Assembly: GCA_903887325.1 (NCBI GenBank) | Contig: CAISPG010000093.1 | Coordinates: 9,931 to 73,930 of the forward strand | Direction of reading: 5' to 3' | DNA length: 64,000 bases | Source: an uncultured Burkholderiales bacterium | GTDB lineage: Bacteria; Pseudomonadota; Gammaproteobacteria; Burkholderiales; Burkholderiaceae_C | In this document: positions 2,155 through 58,900 of the stretch, piece after piece | Layout: every line of letters begins with the position of its first letter | How positions within the stretch are numbered: position 1 is the stretch's first letter | Translations under genes and position numbers: made by a program | The notes under the pieces: generated by a model | Database searches by the model: none | What the model was told of the DNA's origin: nothing | What the model saw: the letters and a program-made list of their open reading frames with translations, nothing else

Positions 2155-3336
2155 ATGTCAGATCCCATCGTCATCGTCAGTGCTGCCCGCACCCCCATGG
2201 GCAGTTTTCAAGGCGACTTTTCTTCTTTGTCTGCCCATGATTTGGGCGGTGTGGCGATTGCCGCAGCCGTGGCCCGCGCCGGTATTGCGCCGGATGCGAT
2301 CACCGAGGTCTTGTTTGGCAATTGTTTGATGGCCGGTCAGGGCCAGGCCCCGGCGCGTCAAGCGGCTTTCAAAGGCGGCTTGCCCAAAAGCGCAGGCGCA
2401 GTCACCTTGTCCAAGATGTGCGGCTCGGGCATGCGCGCAGCCATGTTCGCGCACGACATATTGAGCGCCGGCTCACAAGATGTGATGGTGGCTGGCGGCA
2501 TGGAAAGCATGACGAATGCACCGTATTTGATGTTGAAAGGCCGTGGCGGTTACCGCATGGGCCACGACAAAATTTATGACCACATGATGTTGGACGGCTT
2601 GGAAGATGCGTATGAAGCAGGACGCTCCATGGGCACCTTCGGCGAAGATTGCGCAGCCAAATACCAATTCACGCGCGAGGCACAAGACCATTTCGCCATG
2701 ACCAGCGTGCAACGCGCCAAAGATGCGACTGCCAACGGCGCGTTCAGCAAAGAAATCACGCCTGTCACAGTGAAAGACCGCAGCGGCGAGCGCGTGGTGT
2801 CGGTCGACGAAGGCCCTGGCAAAGTCAAGCTCGACAAAGTCACCAGCTTGAAACCGGCGTTCAAAAAAGACGGCACCATCACCGCGGCTTCCAGTTCATC
2901 TATCAACGATGGCGCGGCCGCGCTGGTGATGATGCGTGAGAGCACTGCCAAGAAACTCGGTTGCACGCCATTGGCACGCGTGGTCAGCCACGCCACATTC
3001 GCGCAAGAGCCCGAATGGTTCACGACAGCGCCGGTAGGTGCGACCCAGCAGGCTTTGGCCAAAGCCGGTTGGAAAGTCAGTGATGTGCAGTTGTGGGAAG
3101 TGAATGAAGCATTTGCTGTGGTGCCCATGGCATTGATGCATGAGCTCAACGTACCGCATGAGATCGTCAACGTCAACGGCGGCGCTTGCGCCTTAGGTCA
3201 TCCGATTGGCGCATCCGGTGCCCGCATCATCGTGACCTTGTTGCACGCATTGCAGGCACGGGGTCTGAAAAAAGGACTGGCCACCTTGTGCATTGGCGGC
3301 GGTGAAGGCACGGCCATGGCGCTTGAGTTGGTCTAG
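2155..3336 (+). CDS. acetyl-CoA C-acyltransferase (thiolase)
   Basis: KMCGSG catalytic Cys, EVNEAF, GHPIGASG, CIGGGEG motifs; GAGGAG RBS upstream. Confidence 0.95.
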   Translation: MSDPIVIVSAARTPMGSFQGDFSSLSAHDLGGVAIAAAVARAGIAPDAITEVLFGNCLMAGQGQAPARQAAFKGGLPKSAGAVTLSKMCGSGMRAAMFAHDILSAGSQDVMVAGGMESMTNAPYLMLKGRGGYRMGHDKIYDHMMLDGLEDAYEAGRSMGTFGEDCAAKYQFTREAQDHFAMTSVQRAKDATANGAFSKEITPVTVKDRSGERVVSVDEGPGKVKLDKVTSLKPAFKKDGTITAASSSSINDGAAALVMMRESTAKKLGCTPLARVVSHATFAQEPEWFTTAPVGATQQALAKAGWKVSDVQLWEVNEAFAVVPMALMHELNVPHEIVNVNGGACALGHPIGASGARIIVTLLHALQARGLKKGLATLCIGGGEGTAMALELV

Positions 3337-3348
3337 GAACCGAGCAGC

Positions 3349-4956
3349 ATGAGCGTTCTCACCTCCAAGTTGTCAACCCGATCCGCCGCATTCATAGCGA
3401 ATGCGCAGGCCATGCAAGCGGCGGTAGAAGATTTGCGCGTGCAAATGGCGCTGAGTGCGCAAGGCGGAGGTGAGGCGGCGCGTGCCAAACACGTGGCGCG
3501 CGGCAAGTTGCCGCCGCGCGAACGCGTGGCCTTGTTGCTGGACCCCGGCACGCCGTTTCTGGAGTTCAGTCCCTTGGCCGCACACGGCATGTACAACGGG
3601 GACGCACCGGGTGCAGGTGTGATCGCAGGCATTGGTCGCGTCAGCGGTGTGGATTGCGTGATTGTGTGCAACGATGCCACGGTCAAGGGCGGCACCTATT
3701 ACCCGATGACGGTGAAAAAACATTTGCGCGCCCAAGAAATTGCGCAGCAAAACCAGTTGCCCTGTATTTACCTGGTCGATTCAGGTGGCGCGAATTTGCC
3801 CAACCAGGACGATGTGTTTCCAGACAAAGAGCACTTTGGCCGCATTTTTTACAACCAAGCCAATATGAGTGCGCAAGGGATTGCGCAAATCGCGGTGGTC
3901 ATGGGCAGTTGCACCGCTGGTGGTGCCTATGTGCCAGCGATGAGCGATGAAACCATCATCGTGAAAAACCAAGGCACTATTTTTCTGGGCGGCCCGCCGC
4001 TGGTCAAAGCCGCCATCGGTGAAATTGTCAGCGCAGAAGATTTAGGCGGCGGCGATGTGCACACCCGTTTGTCAGGTGTGGCCGATCATCTGGCAGACAA
4101 CGATGCGCATGCCTTGGCCTTGGCGCGTGAGGCGGTGTCGCGCTTGAACCGACGCAAATCTTTTGCCACAGAAGTGATTCCTGCCCGCCCGCCGGTGTAC
4201 GACCCGCAAGAGATTTACGGCGTGATACCGGTAGACACGCGCAAGCCGTATGACGTGCGCGACATCATTGCCCGGGTGGTTGACGGCTCGGAGTTTCACG
4301 AGTTCAAGGCCCGCTTCGGCAGCACCTTGGTGTGCGGCTTTGCGCATATCGAAGGCATGCCAGTAGGTATCGTGGCCAACAATGGCGTGTTGTTTTCCGA
4401 ATCCGCACAAAAGGGCGCGCATTTCATTGAACTGTGTTGCCAACGCAAAATCCCGCTGGTGTTTTTGCAGAACATCACCGGCTTCATGGTCGGGCGCAAA
4501 TACGAAAACGAAGGCATTGCGCGTCACGGTGCCAAGATGGTCACCGCCGTGGCCACCGCGCAAGTGCCGAAATTCACCATCATCATCGGCGGCAGTTACG
4601 GCGCAGGCAATTACGGCATGTGCGGTCGCGCTTTCAATCCGCGCTTTTTGTGGATGTGGCCGAACGCGCGTATTTGCGTGATGGGCGGCGAGCAAGCCGC
4701 CAGCGTGCTGGCCACGGTGCGCCGCGACGGCATTGAAGCCAAAGGCGGCAGTTGGAGCGCCGAGGAAGAAGCCAAATTCAAACAACCCTTGCTGGATCAG
4801 TTCGCCCACCAGTCGCACCCGTATTACGCCAGTGCGCGTTTGTGGGACGACGGTGTGATCGACCCGGCCGATACCCGACAGGTGTTGGCCCTGGCCTTGT
4901 CCGCGTCTTTGAACGCACCGATTCCCGACACCCGTTTCGGTGTTTTCCGTATGTGA
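3349..4956 (+). CDS. liuB: 3-methylcrotonyl-CoA carboxylase beta (carboxyltransferase) subunit
   Basis: 535 aa; [36 protein letters not shown] motifs. Confidence 0.9.
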
Positions 4957-4975
4957 TTTTTTTGAGATAAACAAC

Positions 4976-6109
4976 ATGAACCATATTTACCATTTGCCCG
5001 AACACCAAACCCTGCGCGACCAGATGGCGCGTTTTCTGGAACGCGAAGTCGAGCCTTACGGACTCGAATGGGAGAAGGCGGGAAAGGTGCCGCGCGAGGT
5101 ATTGCGCAAAATGGGCGAGGCCGGTTTTTTCGGCTTGATGTACGACTGCGAATACGGCGGTGCTGAAGCGGATGCATTGACCAATCTGGTGTTTGCCGAA
5201 GCCTTGTCGCAATCCACTTACGCCGGTTTTATTGTCAGCGTGTTGGTGCATACCGACATGGCCAGCCCGCATTTGCACCACGCAGGCACGGCGGCGCAAA
5301 AAGCCAAATACATGCCGCGCATCATCGCGGGTGAAACCATCAGTGCCGTGGCCATGACCGAACCCGGCGCGGGCTCAGACTTGTCCGGTATGCGCAGCAC
5401 GGCCAAGCGCGACGGCGATGCCTGGGTGCTGAACGGCACCAAAATGTTCATCACCAACGGCGTGCATGCGGATGTGTATTTCGTCGCTGCCAAAACCGGC
5501 CCCGGCAAACACCAGATGTCCATGTTCATAGTGGAAAAAGGCACGCCGGGTTTCAGCGTTGGTCGTTCTTTGGACAAAACCGGTTGGTTGTGTTCCGACA
5601 CGGCTGAGCTGGTTTTGGACAACGTGCGTCTAGGCCCAGATGCTTTGCTGGGTGAGCAAGACAAAGGTTTTTATGCGCTGATGAAAAATTTGCAGACCGA
5701 GCGCATCGCCTTGGCCGCCATGGCGATTGGCCATTGCCAACGCGCGATTGAACTCACACTCGACTATGTGCGTCAGCGTCAGGCCTTTGGCAAAAGCCTG
5801 TGGGAGATGCAACACATCCGCCAGCGCATTGCCATGTTGGATGCCAAAACCCGCTCGGCGCGTCAGTTCATGTACCACTGCGCCTGGTCGGTCACGCAAG
5901 AGCATGACATCGTGCAAGAAGTCTCCATGCTCAAAGCACTGACCGGTGACTTGGTGAATGAAGTGGTCGGCGGATGTTTGCAATTCTGGGGCGGCATGGG
6001 CTATATGCGCGAAGCGCCTATCGAGCGCTTGTGGCGTGATGCTCGTGTGCTGGCTATTGGCGGCGGTGCCACCGAGGTCATGCTGGAAGAAGTGGCCAAG
6101 CGCTACTGA
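4976..6109 (+). CDS. acyl-CoA dehydrogenase family protein
   Basis: AMTEPGAGSD, NGTKMFITNG, RQAFGK, IGGGATEVM motifs; start moved to ATG 4976, after the liuB stop. Confidence 0.92.
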   Translation: MNHIYHLPEHQTLRDQMARFLEREVEPYGLEWEKAGKVPREVLRKMGEAGFFGLMYDCEYGGAEADALTNLVFAEALSQSTYAGFIVSVLVHTDMASPHLHHAGTAAQKAKYMPRIIAGETISAVAMTEPGAGSDLSGMRSTAKRDGDAWVLNGTKMFITNGVHADVYFVAAKTGPGKHQMSMFIVEKGTPGFSVGRSLDKTGWLCSDTAELVLDNVRLGPDALLGEQDKGFYALMKNLQTERIALAAMAIGHCQRAIELTLDYVRQRQAFGKSLWEMQHIRQRIAMLDAKTRSARQFMYHCAWSVTQEHDIVQEVSMLKALTGDLVNEVVGGCLQFWGGMGYMREAPIERLWRDARVLAIGGGATEVMLEEVAKRY

Positions 6110-6113
6110 TGCC

Positions 6114-8111
6114 ATGTTCCACACAATACTGATTGCCAACCGGGGCGAAATCGCCTGCCGTGTCGCCGCCACGGCTAAGCGCATGGGCGTGCGTACCGTC
6201 GCTGTGTATTCCGACGCAGACGCACAGGCGGCGCATGTGCAAGCTTGCGACGAAGCAGTGCATATAGGTGGCGCGTCTGTGCAAGACAGTTATTTGCAAT
6301 GGCAGCGCATACTGGACGCAGCATTGCAAACCGGTGCGCAAGCCGTGCACCCCGGCTATGGTTTCTTGAGCGAGAACGCTGACTTTGCGAATGCCTGTGC
6401 CAAAGCAGGCTTGGTGTTCATCGGGCCCGGGGTAGATGCCATTCAAGCCATGGGCCTCAAAGCGGCTTCCAAACAGTTGATGGAAAAAGCCGGTGTGCCC
6501 TTGGTGCCCGGTTACCACGGTGCCGATCAATCACCTGCCTTGCTGGAAAAAGAAGCCTTGCGCATCGGCTATCCGGTGTTGATCAAAGCCAGTGCCGGTG
6601 GCGGCGGCAAAGGCATGCGGATTGTTCGGCAAGCTTCCGAATTTTCTGAGGCGCTGGCTTCCTGTCAGCGTGAAGCGAAAAACAGTTTCAGCGATGACGC
6701 GGTGCTGATTGAAAAATACGTGCAGCGTCCGCGCCACATAGAAATACAAGTGTTCGGCGACAGCCACGGCAACATCATCCATTTGCATGAGCGCGATTGC
6801 TCGGTGCAACGCAGGCACCAGAAAGTGTTGGAAGAATCTCCCGCCCCGGGTCTGTCTGAAGACATGCGCCAGCGCATGGGTGCCGCCGCCGTCGCCGCTG
6901 CCAAAGCGGTGAACTATGTGGGCGCAGGCACGGTGGAGTTCATCGTCGAGCAGTCTGAACGCGGCATGGATTTTTTCTTCATGGAAATGAACACCCGCTT
7001 GCAGGTGGAGCACCCGGTGACAGAAGCGGTCACTGGTTTGGATTTGGTGGAATGGCAATTGCGTATTGCCAGCGGTGAGCCTCTGCCATTGACCCAGGCA
7101 CAAGTCACAGTCAACGGCCATGCGATCGAAGCACGCATTTGCGCCGAGACACCTGATAACGATTTCTTACCGGCCATTGGCCAGTTGCAAGTCATGCGTT
7201 CACCCCACGCCAGCCATTTCACGGTGTCACCAGTTCGGTTGGACAGCGGCGTGCGTGAAGGTGACAGCATCAGCCCGTATTACGACTCGATGATCGCCAA
7301 ACTCATCGTGCATGGCGACACGCGCGAGCAGGCCCTGGCCAGATTGGATCAGGCGCTGGCGCAACTGCATATCGTCGGCGTGCAAAACAATGTGGCCTTT
7401 GTGCGGCACGTGATTCGCACGCCATCTTTTTCGCAAGCGAATTTGGACACGGCATTGATTGAGCGTGAAAAAGCCCTGCTTTTCCACCAGCAAACTTTGT
7501 CAAATCAACATGCAGTGGCCAGTGCCGTGGCTGCGCTGTTGCGAACCGAAACCCCTGAGCACTCGGGCTGGACCGACCCTTGGTCAGCACACAGCAACTG
7601 GTTGATGCAAGGCGTGTCAAACCGTTCCTTTGAATTCACAGTGAACGGCTCGTCCATCAAAGTCGTGTTGATCAGCCACGTGCGCGGCGGCATGCGTTTA
7701 CGCATTACTGACGATGAAGCCGACTTCAGATGGCGCGATGTTGACGGGCAATTGCAAGTGACATGGGGCGAACAAAGCTGGCGTTGTCATGTGTATGCAA
7801 GCGGTCTAGAAAGTCATGTGTTTGCAGATGCCGGGTACAGCATTCTGACCTTAGTTGATCCCTTGGCGCATGCTCCCGAGGGAGCTGCCGCCGGCGGCAA
7901 TCTGGCCGCGCCTATGCCGGGCAAATTGCTTTCTTTTGCGGTCGCTGTCGGCGATAAGGTGGCGGCCGGTCAGGCGCTGGCCGTGATGGAAGCCATGAAA
8001 ATGGAACACACAGTCGCCGCACCCACTGACGGTACCGTGGCTGAATTGTTGTATGCGCCAGGGGACCAAGTGGCCGAAGGTGCGCCTTTGTTACGACTGT
8101 CGGTAGACTGA
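6114..8111 (+). CDS. liuD: 3-methylcrotonyl-CoA carboxylase alpha subunit (biotin carboxylase plus biotin carrier)
   Basis: ILIANRGEIA, HPGYGFLSEN, ERDCSVQRRHQK, EMNTRLQVEHPVTE and biotinylation motif EAMKM; start ATG 6114. Confidence 0.9.
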   Translation: MFHTILIANRGEIACRVAATAKRMGVRTVAVYSDADAQAAHVQACDEAVHIGGASVQDSYLQWQRILDAALQTGAQAVHPGYGFLSENADFANACAKAGLVFIGPGVDAIQAMGLKAASKQLMEKAGVPLVPGYHGADQSPALLEKEALRIGYPVLIKASAGGGGKGMRIVRQASEFSEALASCQREAKNSFSDDAVLIEKYVQRPRHIEIQVFGDSHGNIIHLHERDCSVQRRHQKVLEESPAPGLSEDMRQRMGAAAVAAAKAVNYVGAGTVEFIVEQSERGMDFFFMEMNTRLQVEHPVTEAVTGLDLVEWQLRIASGEPLPLTQAQVTVNGHAIEARICAETPDNDFLPAIGQLQVMRSPHASHFTVSPVRLDSGVREGDSISPYYDSMIAKLIVHGDTREQALARLDQALAQLHIVGVQNNVAFVRHVIRTPSFSQANLDTALIEREKALLFHQQTLSNQHAVASAVAALLRTETPEHSGWTDPWSAHSNWLMQGVSNRSFEFTVNGSSIKVVLISHVRGGMRLRITDDEADFRWRDVDGQLQVTWGEQSWRCHVYASGLESHVFADAGYSILTLVDPLAHAPEGAAAGGNLAAPMPGKLLSFAVAVGDKVAAGQALAVMEAMKMEHTVAAPTDGTVAELLYAPGDQVAEGAPLLRLSVD

Positions 8112-8112
8112 C

Positions 8113-8364
8113 ATGACAGTTCCGATCACGCCGTGGCAGAGTTTGCGCCAACGCTGGCAGCAAGTTGATCGCACTGCGCAGGGGCAGTCACTGGCGTCGC
8201 CTTGTATGTCGGTGTGCATCATGAAAACAGACGCTGATGAATGCCACGGATGTCTGCGCAGCTTGGATGAAATCGCGTACTGGGGAATGAGTTCTCCGCA
8301 ACAGCAGCGCGCCGTCTGGCAGCGACTGGGACAACGCATAGAGCAACACTTCAAAGAGGTCTGA
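8113..8364 (+). CDS. DUF1289-type small cysteine-cluster protein
   Basis: SPCMSVC...CHGCLRSLDEIAYW pattern. Confidence 0.8.
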   Translation: MTVPITPWQSLRQRWQQVDRTAQGQSLASPCMSVCIMKTDADECHGCLRSLDEIAYWGMSSPQQQRAVWQRLGQRIEQHFKEV

Positions 8365-8365
8365 G

Positions 8366-9007
8366 ATGAAGCAACTGACTTTTTATTTCGATATTCTCAG
8401 CCCTTATGCCTACTTGGCCTTCCATCAATTGCCGCAGGTATTGCAAGGCTTGAGCTATCAGGTGCGGTACCAGCCGGTGTTGTTTGGCGGGCTGTTGCAA
8501 CACCACGGGCAACTCGGGCCGGTAGAAGTTGTCGGCAAGCGCGCGTGGACTTACCGCCAGTCTTTGTGGCTGGGTCGGCACCTCGGTATAGATTTGCAAT
8601 TGCCTGCCGCCCATCCTTTCAATCCATTACCGCTGCTGCGTTTGGCCATAGCCACCGACGCACAAGGCTATCCGAACCGTTTTGTCTGCGACACCCTATT
8701 TAGATTTGTCTGGGCCAGCGGCAAGAATGTGTCTGACCCGGCGCATTTGGCAGAGTTAAGCGCATTGCTCAAGCCGGTGCGTTCGCCGGATGCCGAGGAT
8801 GTGAAAGCGCAATTGCGCAGCTTCACCGAGCAAGCGATTGCCCACGGCGTCTTCGGCGTGCCTGCGATTCAGGCTGATGACCAGATTTTCTGGGGCTTTG
8901 ATTCGCTGCCTATCTTGCGGCAATATCTTGAAGGCGATGCCTGGTTCAAGACCCCGGCTTGGACAGACGCGGCCAAACTGCCGGTAGGCATTGTGCGCAA
9001 GCGCTGA
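8366..9007 (+). CDS. 2-hydroxychromene-2-carboxylate isomerase / DsbA-family (kappa GST-like) protein
   Basis: FYFDILSPYAYLA N-terminus; GVFGVPAI..DDQIFWGFD C-terminus. Confidence 0.85.
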   Translation: MKQLTFYFDILSPYAYLAFHQLPQVLQGLSYQVRYQPVLFGGLLQHHGQLGPVEVVGKRAWTYRQSLWLGRHLGIDLQLPAAHPFNPLPLLRLAIATDAQGYPNRFVCDTLFRFVWASGKNVSDPAHLAELSALLKPVRSPDAEDVKAQLRSFTEQAIAHGVFGVPAIQADDQIFWGFDSLPILRQYLEGDAWFKTPAWTDAAKLPVGIVRKR

Positions 9008-9034
9008 ACAGTCCGCATTATGAAATGAAGCCCG

Positions 9035-9079
9035 AGGGTTAGCCCTAGTATTGTCAGCCCATGTTCAGTTTAGTGTCAG
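9035..9079 (+). promoter_or_regulatory. candidate transcription-factor sites upstream of the MFS gene
   Basis: imperfect palindrome AGGGTTAGCCCT (9035-9046) and three hexamers tgtcag/gttcag/tgtcag at 9052, 9063 and 9074 (exact 11-bp phasing). Confidence 0.45.
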
Positions 9080-9148
9080 TCGCTGGCAAGTACTGCCTAC
9101 CAAAATACTCATAGACCCCTATTCTGCGGGCAACCACAAGGAGACACC

Positions 9149-10912
9149 ATGGCCATAGTGCATGAAGACCGACCAATGTCGTCGGAAGAAAAGAAAGTTA
9201 TTTTTGCCTCATCACTGGGTACGGTGTTCGAGTGGTATGACTTTTATCTTTACGGCTCATTAGCGGCCATCATTGCCAAACAATTTTTCAGCGGTTTGGA
9301 TCAAGGCTCGGCGTTTATTTTCGCCTTGCTGGCCTTTGCAGCAGGCTTTATCGTGCGTCCTTTTGGCGCGATTTTCTTCGGCCGTCTGGGCGACATGATC
9401 GGTCGAAAATACACTTTCCTGGTCACCATTTTGATCATGGGTTTGTCGACCTTCATCGTCGGTGTGTTGCCCGGTTATGCCAGTATCGGCGTGGCAGCGC
9501 CCGTGATTTTGATTGCCTTGCGTTTGTTGCAAGGTTTGGCACTCGGCGGTGAATACGGCGGTGCCGCCACTTATGTAGCTGAGCATGCTCCCCACGGTAA
9601 ACGTGGTGCCTACACCTCATGGATTCAAACCACGGCCACGCTGGGTTTGTTCCTGTCGTTGTTAGTGATTCTGGGCACGCGTACTGCCATCGGCGAAGAA
9701 GCCTTTGAAACCTGGGGCTGGCGCATTCCTTTCCTGGTCTCCATCGCTTTGCTGGCCGTGTCGGTTTATATCCGTTTGTCTATGAACGAGTCGCCTGCTT
9801 TCACCAAAATGAAAGCCGAAGGCAAAACCTCCAAAGCTCCTTTGTCGGAGTCTTTCGGTCAGTGGAAAAACCTGAAGATCGTGATTCTGGCCCTGGTTGG
9901 TTTGACTGCCGGACAAGCCGTGGTCTGGTACACCGGCCAGTTCTATGCGCTGTTTTTCCTGACCCAGTCGCTTAAGGTTGACGGACCGACTGCCAACTTG
10001 TTTGTGGCGGCATCTCTCATCATCGGCACACCTTTCTTCATCGTCTTCGGCGCACTGTCTGACAAGATAGGCCGCAAGCCCATCATCATGCTGGGTTGTT
10101 TGCTGGCCGTGGTCAGCTACTTCTTTATGTTCGAACAGTTGACAAAGGCGGCTAACCCTGATTTGCACGCTGCACAGCAGGCCAACAAAGTGGTGGTGGT
10201 TGCCGATCCGGGCGAATGTTCATTCCAGTTCAACCCTACCGGCACGGTGAAATTCACTTCTTCATGCGATATCGCCAAACAAAAACTGGCCAGCAACTCG
10301 GTCAGCTATTCCAATGAAATCGCCCCGCCCGGCACCCCGGCCATCATCAAGGTCGGCGAAACCGTGATCTCTACGGTTGTCACGCCGGAAGATGTGGCTG
10401 CAGCCAAGCAAGCCGCCGAGAAAAAACTGGAAGACCTCAAGGCCGCCGATGTGGTCGATCCCAAGGCCGTGAAAAAGGCCGAAGACGGATTGAAAAACCT
10501 GTCGGATGAAAAGAAAAGCCGCGATGCTGTCATCACAGCCAACCTGACTGCGACCCTCAAGGCCGCAGGCTATCCTGCCAAGGCAGACCCGATGAAGGTC
10601 AACAAGCCCGTCGTGGTCTTGATTCTGACCTACCTGGTGATTCTGGTGACCATGGTTTATGGCCCGATCGCTGCCATGCTGGTCGAGATGTTCCCGACAC
10701 GTATCCGCTACACCTCCATGTCCTTGCCCTACCACATCGGTAACGGCTGGTTCGGCGGTTTGCTGCCGACCACAGCGTTTGCCATCGTGGCGCAAACCGG
10801 CAATATGTATAACGGTTTGTGGTATCCCATCATCATTGCAGGCGCGACCTTCATCATCGGTACCTTGTTCATCAAGGAAACCAAGGATGTGGACATTTAC
10901 GCTGACGATTGA
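9149..10912 (+). CDS. MFS transporter, metabolite:H+ symporter (MHS) family
   Basis: GTVFEWYDFYLY, VRPFGA..FG.LGD.IGRK, LQGLALGGEYGGA motifs; AGGAG RBS. Confidence 0.92.
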   Translation: MAIVHEDRPMSSEEKKVIFASSLGTVFEWYDFYLYGSLAAIIAKQFFSGLDQGSAFIFALLAFAAGFIVRPFGAIFFGRLGDMIGRKYTFLVTILIMGLSTFIVGVLPGYASIGVAAPVILIALRLLQGLALGGEYGGAATYVAEHAPHGKRGAYTSWIQTTATLGLFLSLLVILGTRTAIGEEAFETWGWRIPFLVSIALLAVSVYIRLSMNESPAFTKMKAEGKTSKAPLSESFGQWKNLKIVILALVGLTAGQAVVWYTGQFYALFFLTQSLKVDGPTANLFVAASLIIGTPFFIVFGALSDKIGRKPIIMLGCLLAVVSYFFMFEQLTKAANPDLHAAQQANKVVVVADPGECSFQFNPTGTVKFTSSCDIAKQKLASNSVSYSNEIAPPGTPAIIKVGETVISTVVTPEDVAAAKQAAEKKLEDLKAADVVDPKAVKKAEDGLKNLSDEKKSRDAVITANLTATLKAAGYPAKADPMKVNKPVVVLILTYLVILVTMVYGPIAAMLVEMFPTRIRYTSMSLPYHIGNGWFGGLLPTTAFAIVAQTGNMYNGLWYPIIIAGATFIIGTLFIKETKDVDIYADD

Positions 10913-10935
10913 TTTTCAAAGTCTGTGAATGACTG

Positions 10936-10963
10936 GCCCTCCCTCAGCGGAGGGCTTTTTTTT
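10936..10963 (+). terminator. Rho-independent terminator after the MFS gene
   Basis: gccctcc-ctcagc-ggagggc hairpin followed by 8 T. Confidence 0.85.
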
Positions 10964-10996
10964 ACCTACAATCGCCCACCTCTGAGGAGAGTCTTC

Positions 10997-11926
10997 ATCG
11001 ATATCCTGTTGCAACAAATCATCAACGGTCTGGTACTTGGCAGCATGTATGCGCTGGTTGCATTGGGTTACACCATGGTTTACGGCATCATCAATCTGAT
11101 CAACTTTGCCCACGGTGAAGTGCTGATGGTCGGTGCTTTGACCAGTTGGACGGTGATCGGCGTCTTACAGGAATATGCACCCGGTTTGCCCGGATGGCTG
11201 ATATTGTTGATATCACTTATTTGCGCCTGCGTGGTGGCTGCAGCTTTGAACTTTGCGATTGAAAAAATCGCTTACCGGCCTTTGCGCGGTGCGCCCAAAC
11301 TCGCGCCGCTGATCACGGCCATTGGCATGTCCATTTTGTTGCAGACATTGGCCATGGTGATTTGGAAGCCTAACTACAAATCCTTTCCAACCCTGTTGCC
11401 GAGTGATCCGATTCCCATCGGCGGCGCAGTGATCACACCGACTCAGATTTTGATTCTGGCGGTCACTGCGATGGCCTTGGCTGTGCTGATGTGGCTGGTC
11501 AACGGTACCCGCCTGGGCCGCGCCATGCGTGCGACGGCGGAGAACCCGCGCGTCGCTACGTTAATGGGCGTGAAGCCCGACATGGTGATTTCGGCTACCT
11601 TTGTCATCGGCGCTGTGTTGGCGGCATTGGCCGGTGTGATGTGGGCCTCCAATTACGGCACGGTGCAGCACGGCATGGGTTTTCTGCCAGGCCTCAAAGC
11701 GTTCACGGCAGCCGTTTTTGGTGGCATAGGCAACCTGGCCGGAGCCGTGGTCGGCGGCATTCTGCTCGGTCTGATCGAAGCGATTGCCTCGGGTTATATC
11801 GGCGACCTGACCGGCGGCGTGTTGGGCAGCCATTACGCGGATATTTTTGCATTCGTGGTGTTGATCATCGTGCTGACCTTGCGTCCTTCAGGGCTGTTGG
11901 GTGAGCGCGTGGCGGACAGGGCATGA
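10997..11926 (+). CDS. livH: branched-chain amino acid ABC transporter permease
   Basis: DILLQQIINGLVLGSMYALVALGYTMVYGII..INFAHGE; expected start position holds ATC (see findings). Confidence 0.9.
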   Translation: MDILLQQIINGLVLGSMYALVALGYTMVYGIINLINFAHGEVLMVGALTSWTVIGVLQEYAPGLPGWLILLISLICACVVAAALNFAIEKIAYRPLRGAPKLAPLITAIGMSILLQTLAMVIWKPNYKSFPTLLPSDPIPIGGAVITPTQILILAVTAMALAVLMWLVNGTRLGRAMRATAENPRVATLMGVKPDMVISATFVIGAVLAALAGVMWASNYGTVQHGMGFLPGLKAFTAAVFGGIGNLAGAVVGGILLGLIEAIASGYIGDLTGGVLGSHYADIFAFVVLIIVLTLRPSGLLGERVADRA

Positions 11927-56225: not shown

Positions 56226-58115
56226 ATGTGTGGCATCGTCGGCGCGGTTTCCAGTCGCAATATGGTTCCTGTATTGGTTCAAGGCCTGCAACGCCTTGAG
56301 TACCGTGGCTATGACTCCTGCGGCGTTGCGGTCAATGCCGATGTGCCGCAGCTTGGTCAAGCCGCCGGTTTGCAGCGTGCCCGCAGTACCTCGCGCGTAG
56401 CCGAACTGGTCGCGCAGGTGAACGATGCAGACGGCGGATTGCAGGGCAAAACAGGTATTGCGCATACGCGCTGGGCAACCCACGGCGCCCCAGCGGTGCA
56501 CAACGCCCACCCGCACTTCAGCAACGGTCCGGGTCAGTCTGTCAGCGATTCAGTGGCGCGTATCGCGCTGGTGCATAACGGCATCATCGAAAACTATGAA
56601 GAACTTCGTGCGCAGTTGCAGGCCAAGGGCTACGTGTTTGCCAGCCAGACCGATACCGAGGTGATGGTGCATTTGATTGATTCTTTGTACCAGGGCGATG
56701 TGTTGCAAGCGGTGACACAGGCTATTGCACAGTTGCATGGTGCGTTTGCCATTGCCGTGATTGCCAGAGACGAGCCTCAGCGTGTCATCGGCGCCAGAGC
56801 AGGCTCGCCGCTGATTTTGGGTGTAGGTCAAGGTGAAAATTTTCTGGCCAGCGATGCCATGGCACTGGCCGGCGTGACCGATCAAATTGTGTATCTTGCC
56901 GAAGGTGATGTGGTCGATTTGCAATTGAATTCGCACACGGTCTACGACGCAGCACAACAAGTGGTGTTGCGTGAAGTGCAAACGGTACAGGCGCACAGCG
57001 GCGCGGCCGAGTTAGGCCCTTTCAGGCACTACATGCAAAAGGAAATCTTCGAGCAGCCGCGCGCGATTGCCGATACGCTGGAAGGCATTGAAGGCATAGT
57101 GCCGCAACTGTTTGACCGCTCGGATCGCCAGGGCGAAGCTGCCGAGGTATTTGCAGCCACTGACTCGGTGCTGATACTGGCTTGCGGCACCAGTTATTAC
57201 AGCGCGTGTGTGGCCAAGTACTGGCTGGAATCGCTGGCGCAGATTCCGTGTCAGGTAGAGGTTGCCAGTGAATACCGTTACCGCGACAGCGTGCCCGACC
57301 CGCGCACGCTGGTGGTCACCATCAGCCAATCGGGTGAAACCGCCGATACGCTGGCCGCCTTGCGCCACGCGCAAAGCCTGGGCATGAGGCATACGCTCAC
57401 CATTTGCAATGTGGCCACCTCGGCCATGGTGCGCGAGTGCAAGCTGGCCTATATCACCCGCGCAGGCGTGGAAATCGGCGTGGCCTCGACCAAGGCCTTC
57501 ACGACGCAACTCGCAGGCCTGTTTTTGTTGACGCTGACCTTGGCGAAATCCAGGGGTCGCTTGAACGCCGAGACAGAAGCACAACACCTCAAAGCCATGC
57601 GGCATTTGCCGCTGGCTTTGCAAAGTGTGTTGGCCCTGGAGCCGCAAGTCATCGCCTGGGCCCAGGATTTTGCGAATAAGGAAAACGCCTTGTTTCTGGG
57701 GCGCGGCATGCATTACCCGATCGCCATGGAAGGCGCTTTAAAGCTCAAAGAGATCAGCTATATCCATGCGGAAGCCTACCCGGCCGGTGAGTTGAAACAC
57801 GGGCCGCTGGCGCTGGTTACCAGCGCCATGCCGGTGGTGACAGTCGCTCCCAACGACGCCTTGCTAGAAAAACTCAAAAGCAATTTGCAGGAAGTGCGCG
57901 CGCGCGGCGGCGTGTTGTATGTGTTGGCAGACGCCGACACTCGCATTCAGTCCGGCGAAGGCTTGCACGTGATACGCATGCCCGAGCATTACGGTGCTTT
58001 GTCGCCTTTGCTGCACGTCGTGCCTTTGCAATTGCTGGCCTATCACACAGCATGCGCGCGGGGCACTGATGTAGACAAACCGAGGAATCTGGCCAAAAGC
58101 GTGACAGTAGAGTAG
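56226..58115 (+). CDS. glmS: glutamine--fructose-6-phosphate aminotransferase
   Basis: [61 protein letters not shown]. Confidence 0.98.
58098..58115 (+). repeat. SVTVE-stop coding segment, copy 1 (glmS 3' end)
   Basis: AGC GTG ACA GTA GAG TAG. Confidence 0.7.
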
Positions 58116-58123
58116 TCACGCAA

Positions 58124-58438
58124 GTGAGTAATTTTGATGATATAAAAGAAGTCAAAATTACCCTAAAAATCACCTCAAAAGCCTTGTATTACATGGCTTA
58201 TTCAACGTACCAACAATGGTTGTTTGAGAAGGTTTGCTATCTACGAGATGTAGAAAAAATGACTTTTGATGCAATCGCTAAAAGAATCACATCTGAGGGC
58301 TTCAAATCAGCTAGGGGCTTCCAATTTATTGCTGAAAGTGCCTTTTCTACATACAAGAAGGGCAATGTACGAAAGCAACGTTTACGAGTGCAACAAGAAT
58401 GGTGTAAAGACTTTTGGACAAGAAATCACAGACCTTGA
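58124..58438 (+). CDS. small basic protein resembling a stand-alone serine-recombinase DNA-binding (recombinase) domain; 3' end probably fused at a deletion junction
   Basis: GTG start 9 bp after the glmS stop; MTFDAIAKRITSEGFKSARGFQF resembles the IA..Ln..G..t.rG..W pattern. Confidence 0.5.
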   Translation: MSNFDDIKEVKITLKITSKALYYMAYSTYQQWLFEKVCYLRDVEKMTFDAIAKRITSEGFKSARGFQFIAESAFSTYKKGNVRKQRLRVQQEWCKDFWTRNHRP

Positions 58439-58769
58439 TACAAAAAGTGAAGAAAAAAAGAAAGCGTACATTGAAGGCTTAGTGAAGCAGATAGATGTGC
58501 AATGGAATGAATCTGAACGAGAGCATGAATTGACTTTGACTTTCAATTTGCCAATAGTCAACGATGGAATTACTTGGCGCGAAATAGAGAACTATGAAGG
58601 TCATGGAAGGCGTGCAAGGCGATATGACATTTACGAAGGTTCAACAAAAACGATTCTGAAAGCAAAAAAAAAGGATGGGAGAGGATAATTAATGTACAAA
58701 ATAAGTATTCAAATAATCAAGAAATGTCCAAATACTCACTTGCATTACCTGTCCGTCACTGTTGAGTAA
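58400..58769 (+). pseudogene. C-terminal fragment of a probable large serine recombinase
   Basis: KKKAYIEGLVKQIDV...HELTLTFNLP resembles large-serine-recombinase C-termini; no catalytic N-terminus; one in-frame TAA (58686-88), then the frame continues to HYLSVTVE-stop. Confidence 0.5.
58752..58769 (+). repeat. SVTVE-stop coding segment, copy 2 (degenerate duplicate of the glmS end)
   Basis: TCC GTC ACT GTT GAG TAA; same peptide as copy 1 with synonymous codons. Confidence 0.65.
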
Positions 58770-58900
58770 CACCTCCTCTTAATGCATCGAACAAGCGCTT
58801 AGGTGTTCGCTTGCAACAGGATTCAACTGCCTTAATTACTGGCAACCAGTATCACTATAAATCGCTAGACTTGATTCCATTTAGATTCTGTTTCAAGTTT

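Follow-up and report, generated by a model that had tools for sequence, protein, structure and literature searches.

Downstream of glmS in the 64,000-nucleotide (nt) stretch of DNA analysed here (the window; contig CAISPG010000093.1 of an uncultured Burkholderiales bacterium), we have found what is very probably left of an integrative island whose mobility depended on a large serine recombinase (LSR). The remnant, at positions 58104-58759, is internally deleted and non-autonomous, and the window copy is an inert scar, unable to move by itself. In this study we describe the anatomy of the element, its empty site, intact integrated relatives, several forms of its attachment site before integration (attP) and a 2-bp crossover window. 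The LSR, to judge from the sequences compared, would be the enzyme of integration, and we infer that the deletion took place after integration, in the source lineage.

The block is framed by a peptide repeat, Ser-Val-Thr-Val-Glu followed by a stop codon (SVTVE-stop). The copy that ends glmS reads AGC GTG ACA GTA GAG TAG (58098-58115) and the distal copy TCC GTC ACT GTT GAG TAA (58752-58769), in the glmS frame; the offset of exactly 654 bp had been noticed in the original prediction, which was made from the window alone. These are the only two occurrences of SVTVE-stop in all six frames of the window, and the chance expectation of a further one, given the base composition of the downstream kilobase, is about 4e-5 per 1 kb. 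As the serine codons AGC and TCC cannot be interconverted by silent steps, the two copies must come from different sources rather than having diverged in place. The GC content between them is 36-39%, against 55-60% in the flanks, and just inside them lies an imperfect 19-nt inverted repeat (58115-58133 and 58730-58748). From left to right, the block consists of the glmS-proximal junction (attL), a small gene (ORF1), a deletion junction, the last 97 residues of the LSR and the distal junction (attR). These parts and their neighbours are listed here with the evidence for each, where G011 is the genome of the closest relative, L019, L028 and L029 are metagenome contigs carrying related elements, L023 is a chromosome with an intact element, P0019 is an intact LSR and AC is the dinucleotide shared by all attachment sites:

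56226..58115, plus strand: glmS (glutamine-fructose-6-phosphate aminotransferase, 629 amino acids (aa)), the target gene; Pfam SIS and GATase_6/7, and the list of open reading frames
58098..58134, plus strand: attL; to the right of AC close to the L028 attP (1 mismatch), to the left matching the G011 empty site
58124..58438, plus strand: ORF1, small element gene, native to about 58383; homologues
58384..58402, no strand: deletion junction; blastn against L023, L028, L029 and L019, and base-by-base comparison
58395..58688, plus strand: C-terminal 97 residues of the LSR and stop; BLASTP against P0019 residues 465-561
58730..58769, plus strand: attR; left part, through the shared AC, identical to the L028 attP
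58770..58831, no strand: 62-nt stretch from attR to the resumption of G011 homology, at 58832

Evidence for an insertion comes from the 41 genomes searched: the source genome itself, 24 others from its genus and 16 from its order. In the closest relative, G011 (contig L002; 90% identity at the glmS end), TTAATTACTGG, a sequence found in the window at 58832, begins just 3 nt behind the glmS stop, so that window 58116-58831 is an insertion relative to G011. This genome thus provides the empty site, and the comparison recommended in the original prediction, taken together with attL, attR and attP, gives the host site (attB) and the likely crossover. Joining the left half of attL to the right half of attR gives AGC GTG ACT GTT GAG TAA, in a reconstituted glmS end (AAAAGCGTGACTGTTGAGTAA) with 2 differences in 18 bases from the G011 empty site, against 3 and 5 for the junction copies as they stand. 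The 62 nt that follow attR show no similarity to the elements examined, and are either host-specific intergenic DNA or an older scar. Pieces of related elements are present elsewhere in the genus: the same left arm lies directly 3' of glmS in G003, a contig of G024 ends with the right arm and then …HLRYLSVTVE-stop, coded by other synonymous codons (TCT GTC ACA GTG GAG TAG), and G020 shows a short match.

The organization of attP accounts for the two ends of the block. On L019, behind the LSR stop, it reads CTCACTTGC-atcccatg-TCA GTT ACC GTG GAG TAG-atat-GCAAGTGAG, followed by ORF1; that is, a single SVTVE-stop mimic stands between the arms that occupy opposite ends of the window block. The pattern CTCACTTGC-N30-GCAAGTGAG was found on seven metagenome contigs, corresponding to about four distinct elements (L019-L022, one element in four samples, L028, L029 and L036), and a viral contig collection held no exact match to this attP pattern of the clade. 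The sequence of L020 is that of L019 circularly permuted, which would fit either a circle or a tandem array. The element closest to the window is that of L028: as far as TCCGTCAC, its attP and the window attR do not differ, and from ACAGTAGA(A/G)TAGTCACGCAAGTGAG on, this attP matches the window attL. In the window, attL is made of host AGC GTG A, the crossover AC (58104-58105) and element CA GTA GAG TAG, followed by the spacer TCAC and the P' arm GCAAGTGAGTAATT(T); the element bases after AC rebuild (T)VE-stop, in agreement with the predicted restoration of the glmS stop region. In turn, attR is made of the P arm AAATACTCACTTGC, the spacer ATTACCTG, element TCC GTC and the crossover AC (58758-58759), behind which comes the native end of glmS, T GTT GAG TAA, in its displaced position.

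Only AC is common to attL, attR, attP and attB, in two independent sets (window/L028/G011 and L023/L019), and it lies exactly midway along the 30-nt spacer that parts the attP arms. Mapping on these natural variants of related elements places the likely crossover at AC, the first two bases of the glmS threonine codon. Serine integrases are characterised by just such an exchange, of 2 bp and in the middle of an imperfect palindrome. Two other readings of the junctions were tried and dropped. A pair of transposon ends with a diverged target duplication was discarded since the attP contigs show one core between two arms, and a surrogate glmS 3' end of about 116 nt supplied by the element was discarded since the comparison of att sites limits the element-borne part to 10 nt. 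Separately, the attL junction of the window creates a perfect 7-bp palindrome, GCGTGAC-N9-GTCACGC (58099-58121), over the glmS stop; it is absent from the attL of L023 and is probably incidental.

The recombinase is present on L019 and L020 as an intact 561-aa protein directly upstream of an ORF1 homologue. P0019 matches the Pfam families Resolvase (PF00239, 3.4e-21), Recombinase (PF07508, 1.5e-12) and Zn_ribbon_recom (PF13408, 4.2e-6), a set of domains that identifies the 561-aa protein as an LSR. The resolvase-type catalytic domain, with the nucleophilic serine, is N-terminal, and the other two domains follow on its C-terminal side. The Y-x-R-V-S-T and D/R/R motifs are invariant in 11 LSR homologues (Y11, R13, V14, S15, Q19, D84, R87 and R90). 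An intact integrated element is found in L023, the complete chromosome OZ248407.1, in the order glmS (616-2517), attL, ORF1 (2520-2831), cargo, LSR (10001-11686) and attR (11705-11739), and its LSR is 100% identical to that of L019. The family is large, with at least 120 cluster representatives at 52% identity or more, which, where named at all, are called only 'recombinase family protein' or 'DNA invertase Pin-like'. All four of the long-contig homologues examined flank glmS, with the repeat at both junctions: L030 (LSR 72% identical), L032 (62%), L035 (57%, Rhodocyclaceae) and L034 (53%, Orrella sp. NBD-18). Intact large-serine-recombinase elements adjoining glmS, as foreseen in the original prediction, therefore exist, and glmS is the target in five of five distinct integrated elements (L023, L030/L031, L032/L033, L034 and L035) as well as in the window. 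The alternative arrangement that the prediction had allowed, a recombinase running antisense into glmS, is that of the Orrella element (L034, 2024-11712), in which the LSR lies at the glmS-proximal end and is convergent with glmS.

The cargo of the Orrella element includes a Bpu10I-type restriction enzyme, a DNA methylase and a small resolvase, and across the elements we found a NERD nuclease, a restriction-modification pair, toxin-antitoxin genes and H-NS. Beyond attR of L030 (12070-16150), before the core gene metK, lie DUF3644 and a PhdYeFM/PIN toxin-antitoxin pair, which may be older cargo left at the same hotspot. No close relative of the LSR was found in a plasmid collection, where all matches are below 60% identity and the ten best among the matches listed are at 23-27%. 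A full-text search of the literature gave no description of an LSR family targeting glmS.

The relation between the recombinase gene and attP departs in part from what had been predicted. That attP carries a mimic of the glmS end is correct in that one copy sits between inverted arms; the need for the whole mimic did not stand, as only its right half (…C/N GTN GAG TAG) is required to rebuild glmS. In L030 the mimic reads S-E-T-V-E, its element-borne left half coding S-E in place of S-V; the constraint on this half acts on the DNA site and not on the peptide. The claims that attP lies inside the recombinase gene and that the recombinase itself ends in SVTVE have to be abandoned for the window clade, where the protein ends in …KKDGRG-stop and the distance from its stop to the crossover goes from 42 nt (L019) to 70 nt (window). 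In the window, the LSR stop is at 58686-58688, and the frame that ends in the second SVTVE-stop is only 26 codons long after it; because the mimic of L019 is in another frame, the frame shared by the LSR fragment and SVTVE-stop in the window is a coincidence. An overlap of recombinase gene and att site is seen in distant relatives only: in Orrella the LSR stop codon falls within the att arm, and for the proteins P0205 and P0213 the frame appears to continue through attP.

The extent of the loss in the window can be read from the intact relatives. Window 58395-58685 is 72% identical (BLASTP, E value 2e-49) to residues 465-561 of P0019, and both share the end …KKKDGRG-stop, which bears out the recombinase-like C-terminal fragment originally proposed. 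It is the C-terminal sixth of the protein, the catalytic, recombinase and zinc-ribbon domains being gone. Homology on the left side (attL and ORF1) stops at 58378-58383, and on the right side (the LSR 3' end and attR) it begins at about 58403-58407. Relative to L023, about 8.6 kb are missing (2781-11404), that is, all the cargo and LSR residues 1 to about 460, so the internal deletion of cargo and catalytic domain that had been postulated now has a mapped junction. Pfam and PHROG searches with both window reading frames gave no match, and they are named because of the genomic context of their homologues and not from direct family searches. Collapse has also occurred independently in other genomes. 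In G003 (L014, reverse strand, 5270-4551), codon ~40 of ORF1 is joined to the LSR at …LPIVNDGITW, and a second ORF1 paralogue, 46% identical, comes next, so that two stacked elements may have contributed to this remnant. The L017 remnant has nothing but attL and an intact ORF1 behind glmS. No attR is recognisable in the G003 and L017 remnants.

From these data we propose a model for the integration and decay of the element. Before integration, the order would be LSR gene, attP, ORF1 and 5-9 kb of cargo, with attP formed by inverted arms (…AAATTACTCACTTGC / GCAAGTGAGTAATTT…) around a 30-nt spacer bearing the mimic of the last five glmS codons and stop. The LSR would recombine attP with the real glmS end, exchanging 2 bp at the invariant AC of the threonine codon. 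After integration, the element-borne N GTN GAG TAG would complete glmS, leaving the essential gene intact, and the native N GTN GAG TAA would end up at the distal junction, after TCN GTN from the element. Such a half-swap at AC would leave two copies that agree as peptide and differ at wobble positions, the glmS-proximal one having to code (T)VE-stop because glmS must stay intact. A later deletion, of about 8.6 kb by comparison with L023, would have joined ORF1 at codon ~87 to the LSR at codon ~460, with loss of the cargo and of the catalytic and DNA-binding domains.

Several points weigh against this model. The provisional assignment of the enzyme to its site comes from their association and from the 2-bp exchange pattern. 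The crossover was mapped between non-identical elements, L028 being 89-93% identical to the window remnant, and the attP contigs could be tandem integrated copies rather than free circles. The last stretch of glmS (about 120 nt, 57996-58115) is unusually diverged from G011, with 77-80% identity against 92-97% in the preceding ~420 nt, and identity is as low as ~75% in the downstream cyclophilin gene. Such a mosaic suggests a homologous-recombination tract across the insertion site, and the remnant may have entered in this way rather than by integration on the spot. A collapsed element arriving ready-made from a related strain, by recombination through the 3' part of glmS and the downstream genes, would fit the drop in identity and is possible, if on balance unlikely. 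The divergent tract may equally reflect the history of G011 itself or a fast-evolving neighbouring gene, and the reconstituted attB, which at 16 of 18 bases agrees with G011 better than either junction, fits integration into a native-like site. In any case, a ready-collapsed arrival would alter the history only and not the identity of the remnant. We consider it quite unlikely that the remnant is a non-autonomous mini-element, comparable to a miniature inverted-repeat transposable element and movable by an intact LSR (with a directionality factor) encoded at another place in the same cell or by another member of the community. The arms and core halves are conserved as in intact elements, with one mismatch to the L028 attP, and attL and ORF1 were kept in the independent collapses of G003 and L017; however, without a recognisable attR in these two, the keeping of both sites is not general, and the window ORF1 has lost its native C-terminus.

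A further difficulty is that most elements of the clade also carry a tyrosine recombinase of about 200 aa, with a catalytic domain only, conserved in the cargo (L023 7393-8001, L030 9333-9932 and L032 7092-7694). This Phage_integrase-domain protein (199-202 aa; L019, L020, L023, L030 and L032), which lies directly upstream of the LSR in L030, might in principle be the integrase. It is absent, however, from the glmS elements L034 and L035, which have a small resolvase instead, and it is devoid of any DNA-binding arm domain. Tyrosine integrases need 6-8 bp of identical overlap, whereas attP and attB differ here at every wobble position, with no more than a few bases of uninterrupted identity; in addition, the att site always adjoins the LSR gene. 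We therefore regard this protein as a very improbable integrase. The chance that the block is a decayed Tn7-like transposon at attTn7 is practically nil: its position beside glmS is all that favours it, and the reading is refuted by the intact relatives. Neither tns nor transposase domains were detected in the window block or in ten L023 proteins scanned, which make up most, not all, of its cargo, and Tn7 ends are likewise missing from the block, as originally stated. Besides, the junction falls in coding sequence, at the threonine codon, with 10 nt to go to the end of the stop codon, and not ~25 bp downstream, and there are no 5-bp duplication and no TGT…ACA ends, the repeat not being identical as DNA. 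The remnant of an LSR-moved island thus remains the reading that we favour.

ORF1, the small gene that the element places behind glmS, has 18 close homologues (77-91% identity, 101-126 aa), all of them unnamed, the closest being P0002, and neither protein matches Pfam. A profile search collected 202 family representatives, nearly all of 45-212 aa, and 16 of the 60 scanned match PF07508 (best E value 8.8e-9, typically at profile positions ~12-51), so the description of a small recombinase-domain-like frame is right at the level of the family. It is not a piece of the recombinase: with a pN/pS (nonsynonymous relative to synonymous changes) of 0.22-0.40, ORF1 is, on the sequence data, a conserved gene in its own right, with a relation to the Pfam Recombinase domain and a putative helical fold like that of this domain. 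The window copy is native up to codon ~87 (about 58383), after which ~14 native residues are missing; owing to the deletion, the frame then runs for ~18 more codons through recombinase sequence read out of frame. After integration, the start codon of ORF1 is a GTG in the P' arm, 8 nt past the glmS stop, and no terminator was found between the glmS stop and this start. In the attP state, the frame is open across attP back to an ATG, giving a form of 119-126 aa in all three attP variants with enough sequence. This ATG overlaps the last codons of the LSR in L019 (4008-4100) and L029 (5616-5700), and lies about 35 nt past the LSR stop in L028 (232-300). The 119-126-aa form cannot be made after integration.

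A link between ORF1 and the recombinase is seen in two distant relatives taken from the representative library, P0205 (726 aa) and P0213 (212 aa), in which an ORF1-type domain continues the LSR C-terminus in the same frame; in such relatives, integration would split the recombinase gene. BLASTP showed no similarity between ORF1 and the LSR of its own element. A profile-profile match of ORF1 to the LSR was rejected, as it was due solely to the ORF1-like C-terminal extension of P0205 and not to the recombinase domain. The AlphaFold model of ORF1 is of low confidence (pLDDT 66, four helices), and neither Foldseek against the PDB nor a profile search of PDB sequences gave a classification. ORF1 is only a candidate accessory factor. 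A more specific idea, which we put forward tentatively and think unlikely, is that ORF1 is a detachable C-terminal DNA-binding module of the LSR, severed from it by integration, and that this rewiring acts as a directionality switch. If this were true, integration would put ORF1 under read-through transcription 8 nt behind glmS, and the remnants keeping attL and ORF1 would be explained as trans-mobilisable cassettes or domesticated genes.

The closest parallel among known systems is SCC/SCCmec, in a comparison that rests on established knowledge. In these staphylococcal elements, too, LSRs (CcrAB or CcrC) insert an island into the 3' end of a conserved housekeeping gene, rlmH/orfX, within its final codons. 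The codons taken from the gene are provided by the island, the original gene end is found at the distal junction and marks it, and remnants that are decayed or composite occur often. In contrast, the present element targets glmS and not rlmH, uses a single LSR instead of a CcrA/CcrB pair, resides in betaproteobacterial hosts and has the Recombinase-domain-like ORF1 starting in the att arm. By analogy, it would work like SCC; it is not a member of SCC, rlmH not being its target. With the large serine integrases of phages (SPbeta SprA/YokA, TP901-1, A118/LI, Bxb1 and phiC31), the LSR shares the order Resolvase, Recombinase and zinc ribbon with coiled coil, and its attP shares the imperfect inverted arms around a 2-bp crossover. 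However, the similarity to any solved LSR is weak, with E values of 1e-9 at best, mostly in the catalytic domain, and no phage genes were seen among the genes examined in these elements. The nearest solved structures (phmmer) are the unnamed resolvase-family catalytic domain 3guv (1.3e-9), SPbeta YokA (1.9e-7) and TP901-1 integrase (6.3e-7). The recombination chemistry is that of an ordinary LSR; the target and the ORF1 arrangement are new.

Genes for glmS end in nearly the same codons across bacteria, and this conservation has made Tn7 a standard tool for neutral single-copy insertion. Tn7 and the present element both take advantage of the extremely conserved glmS 3' end, where it is safe to land, but the latter does so with a serine recombinase, unrelated to the TnsABCD transposase machinery. 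Its junction is inside the coding sequence, at the threonine codon, rather than ~25 bp past the stop, and its insertion is conservative, without target duplication. The glmS end would therefore be served by a second system, mechanistically unrelated to Tn7, which would consist of one protein and an attP of ~50 bp, would repair the gene on integrating, and would have as its attB those codon positions of an essential gene that do not vary. As the att sites can be read to a 2-bp crossover and the 561-aa enzyme is intact, the system is directly testable as a one-component integration tool for Gram-negative bacteria. In the bacteria that host it, the family makes the region downstream of glmS a hotspot for islands, and the scar in the window shows how such islands decay.

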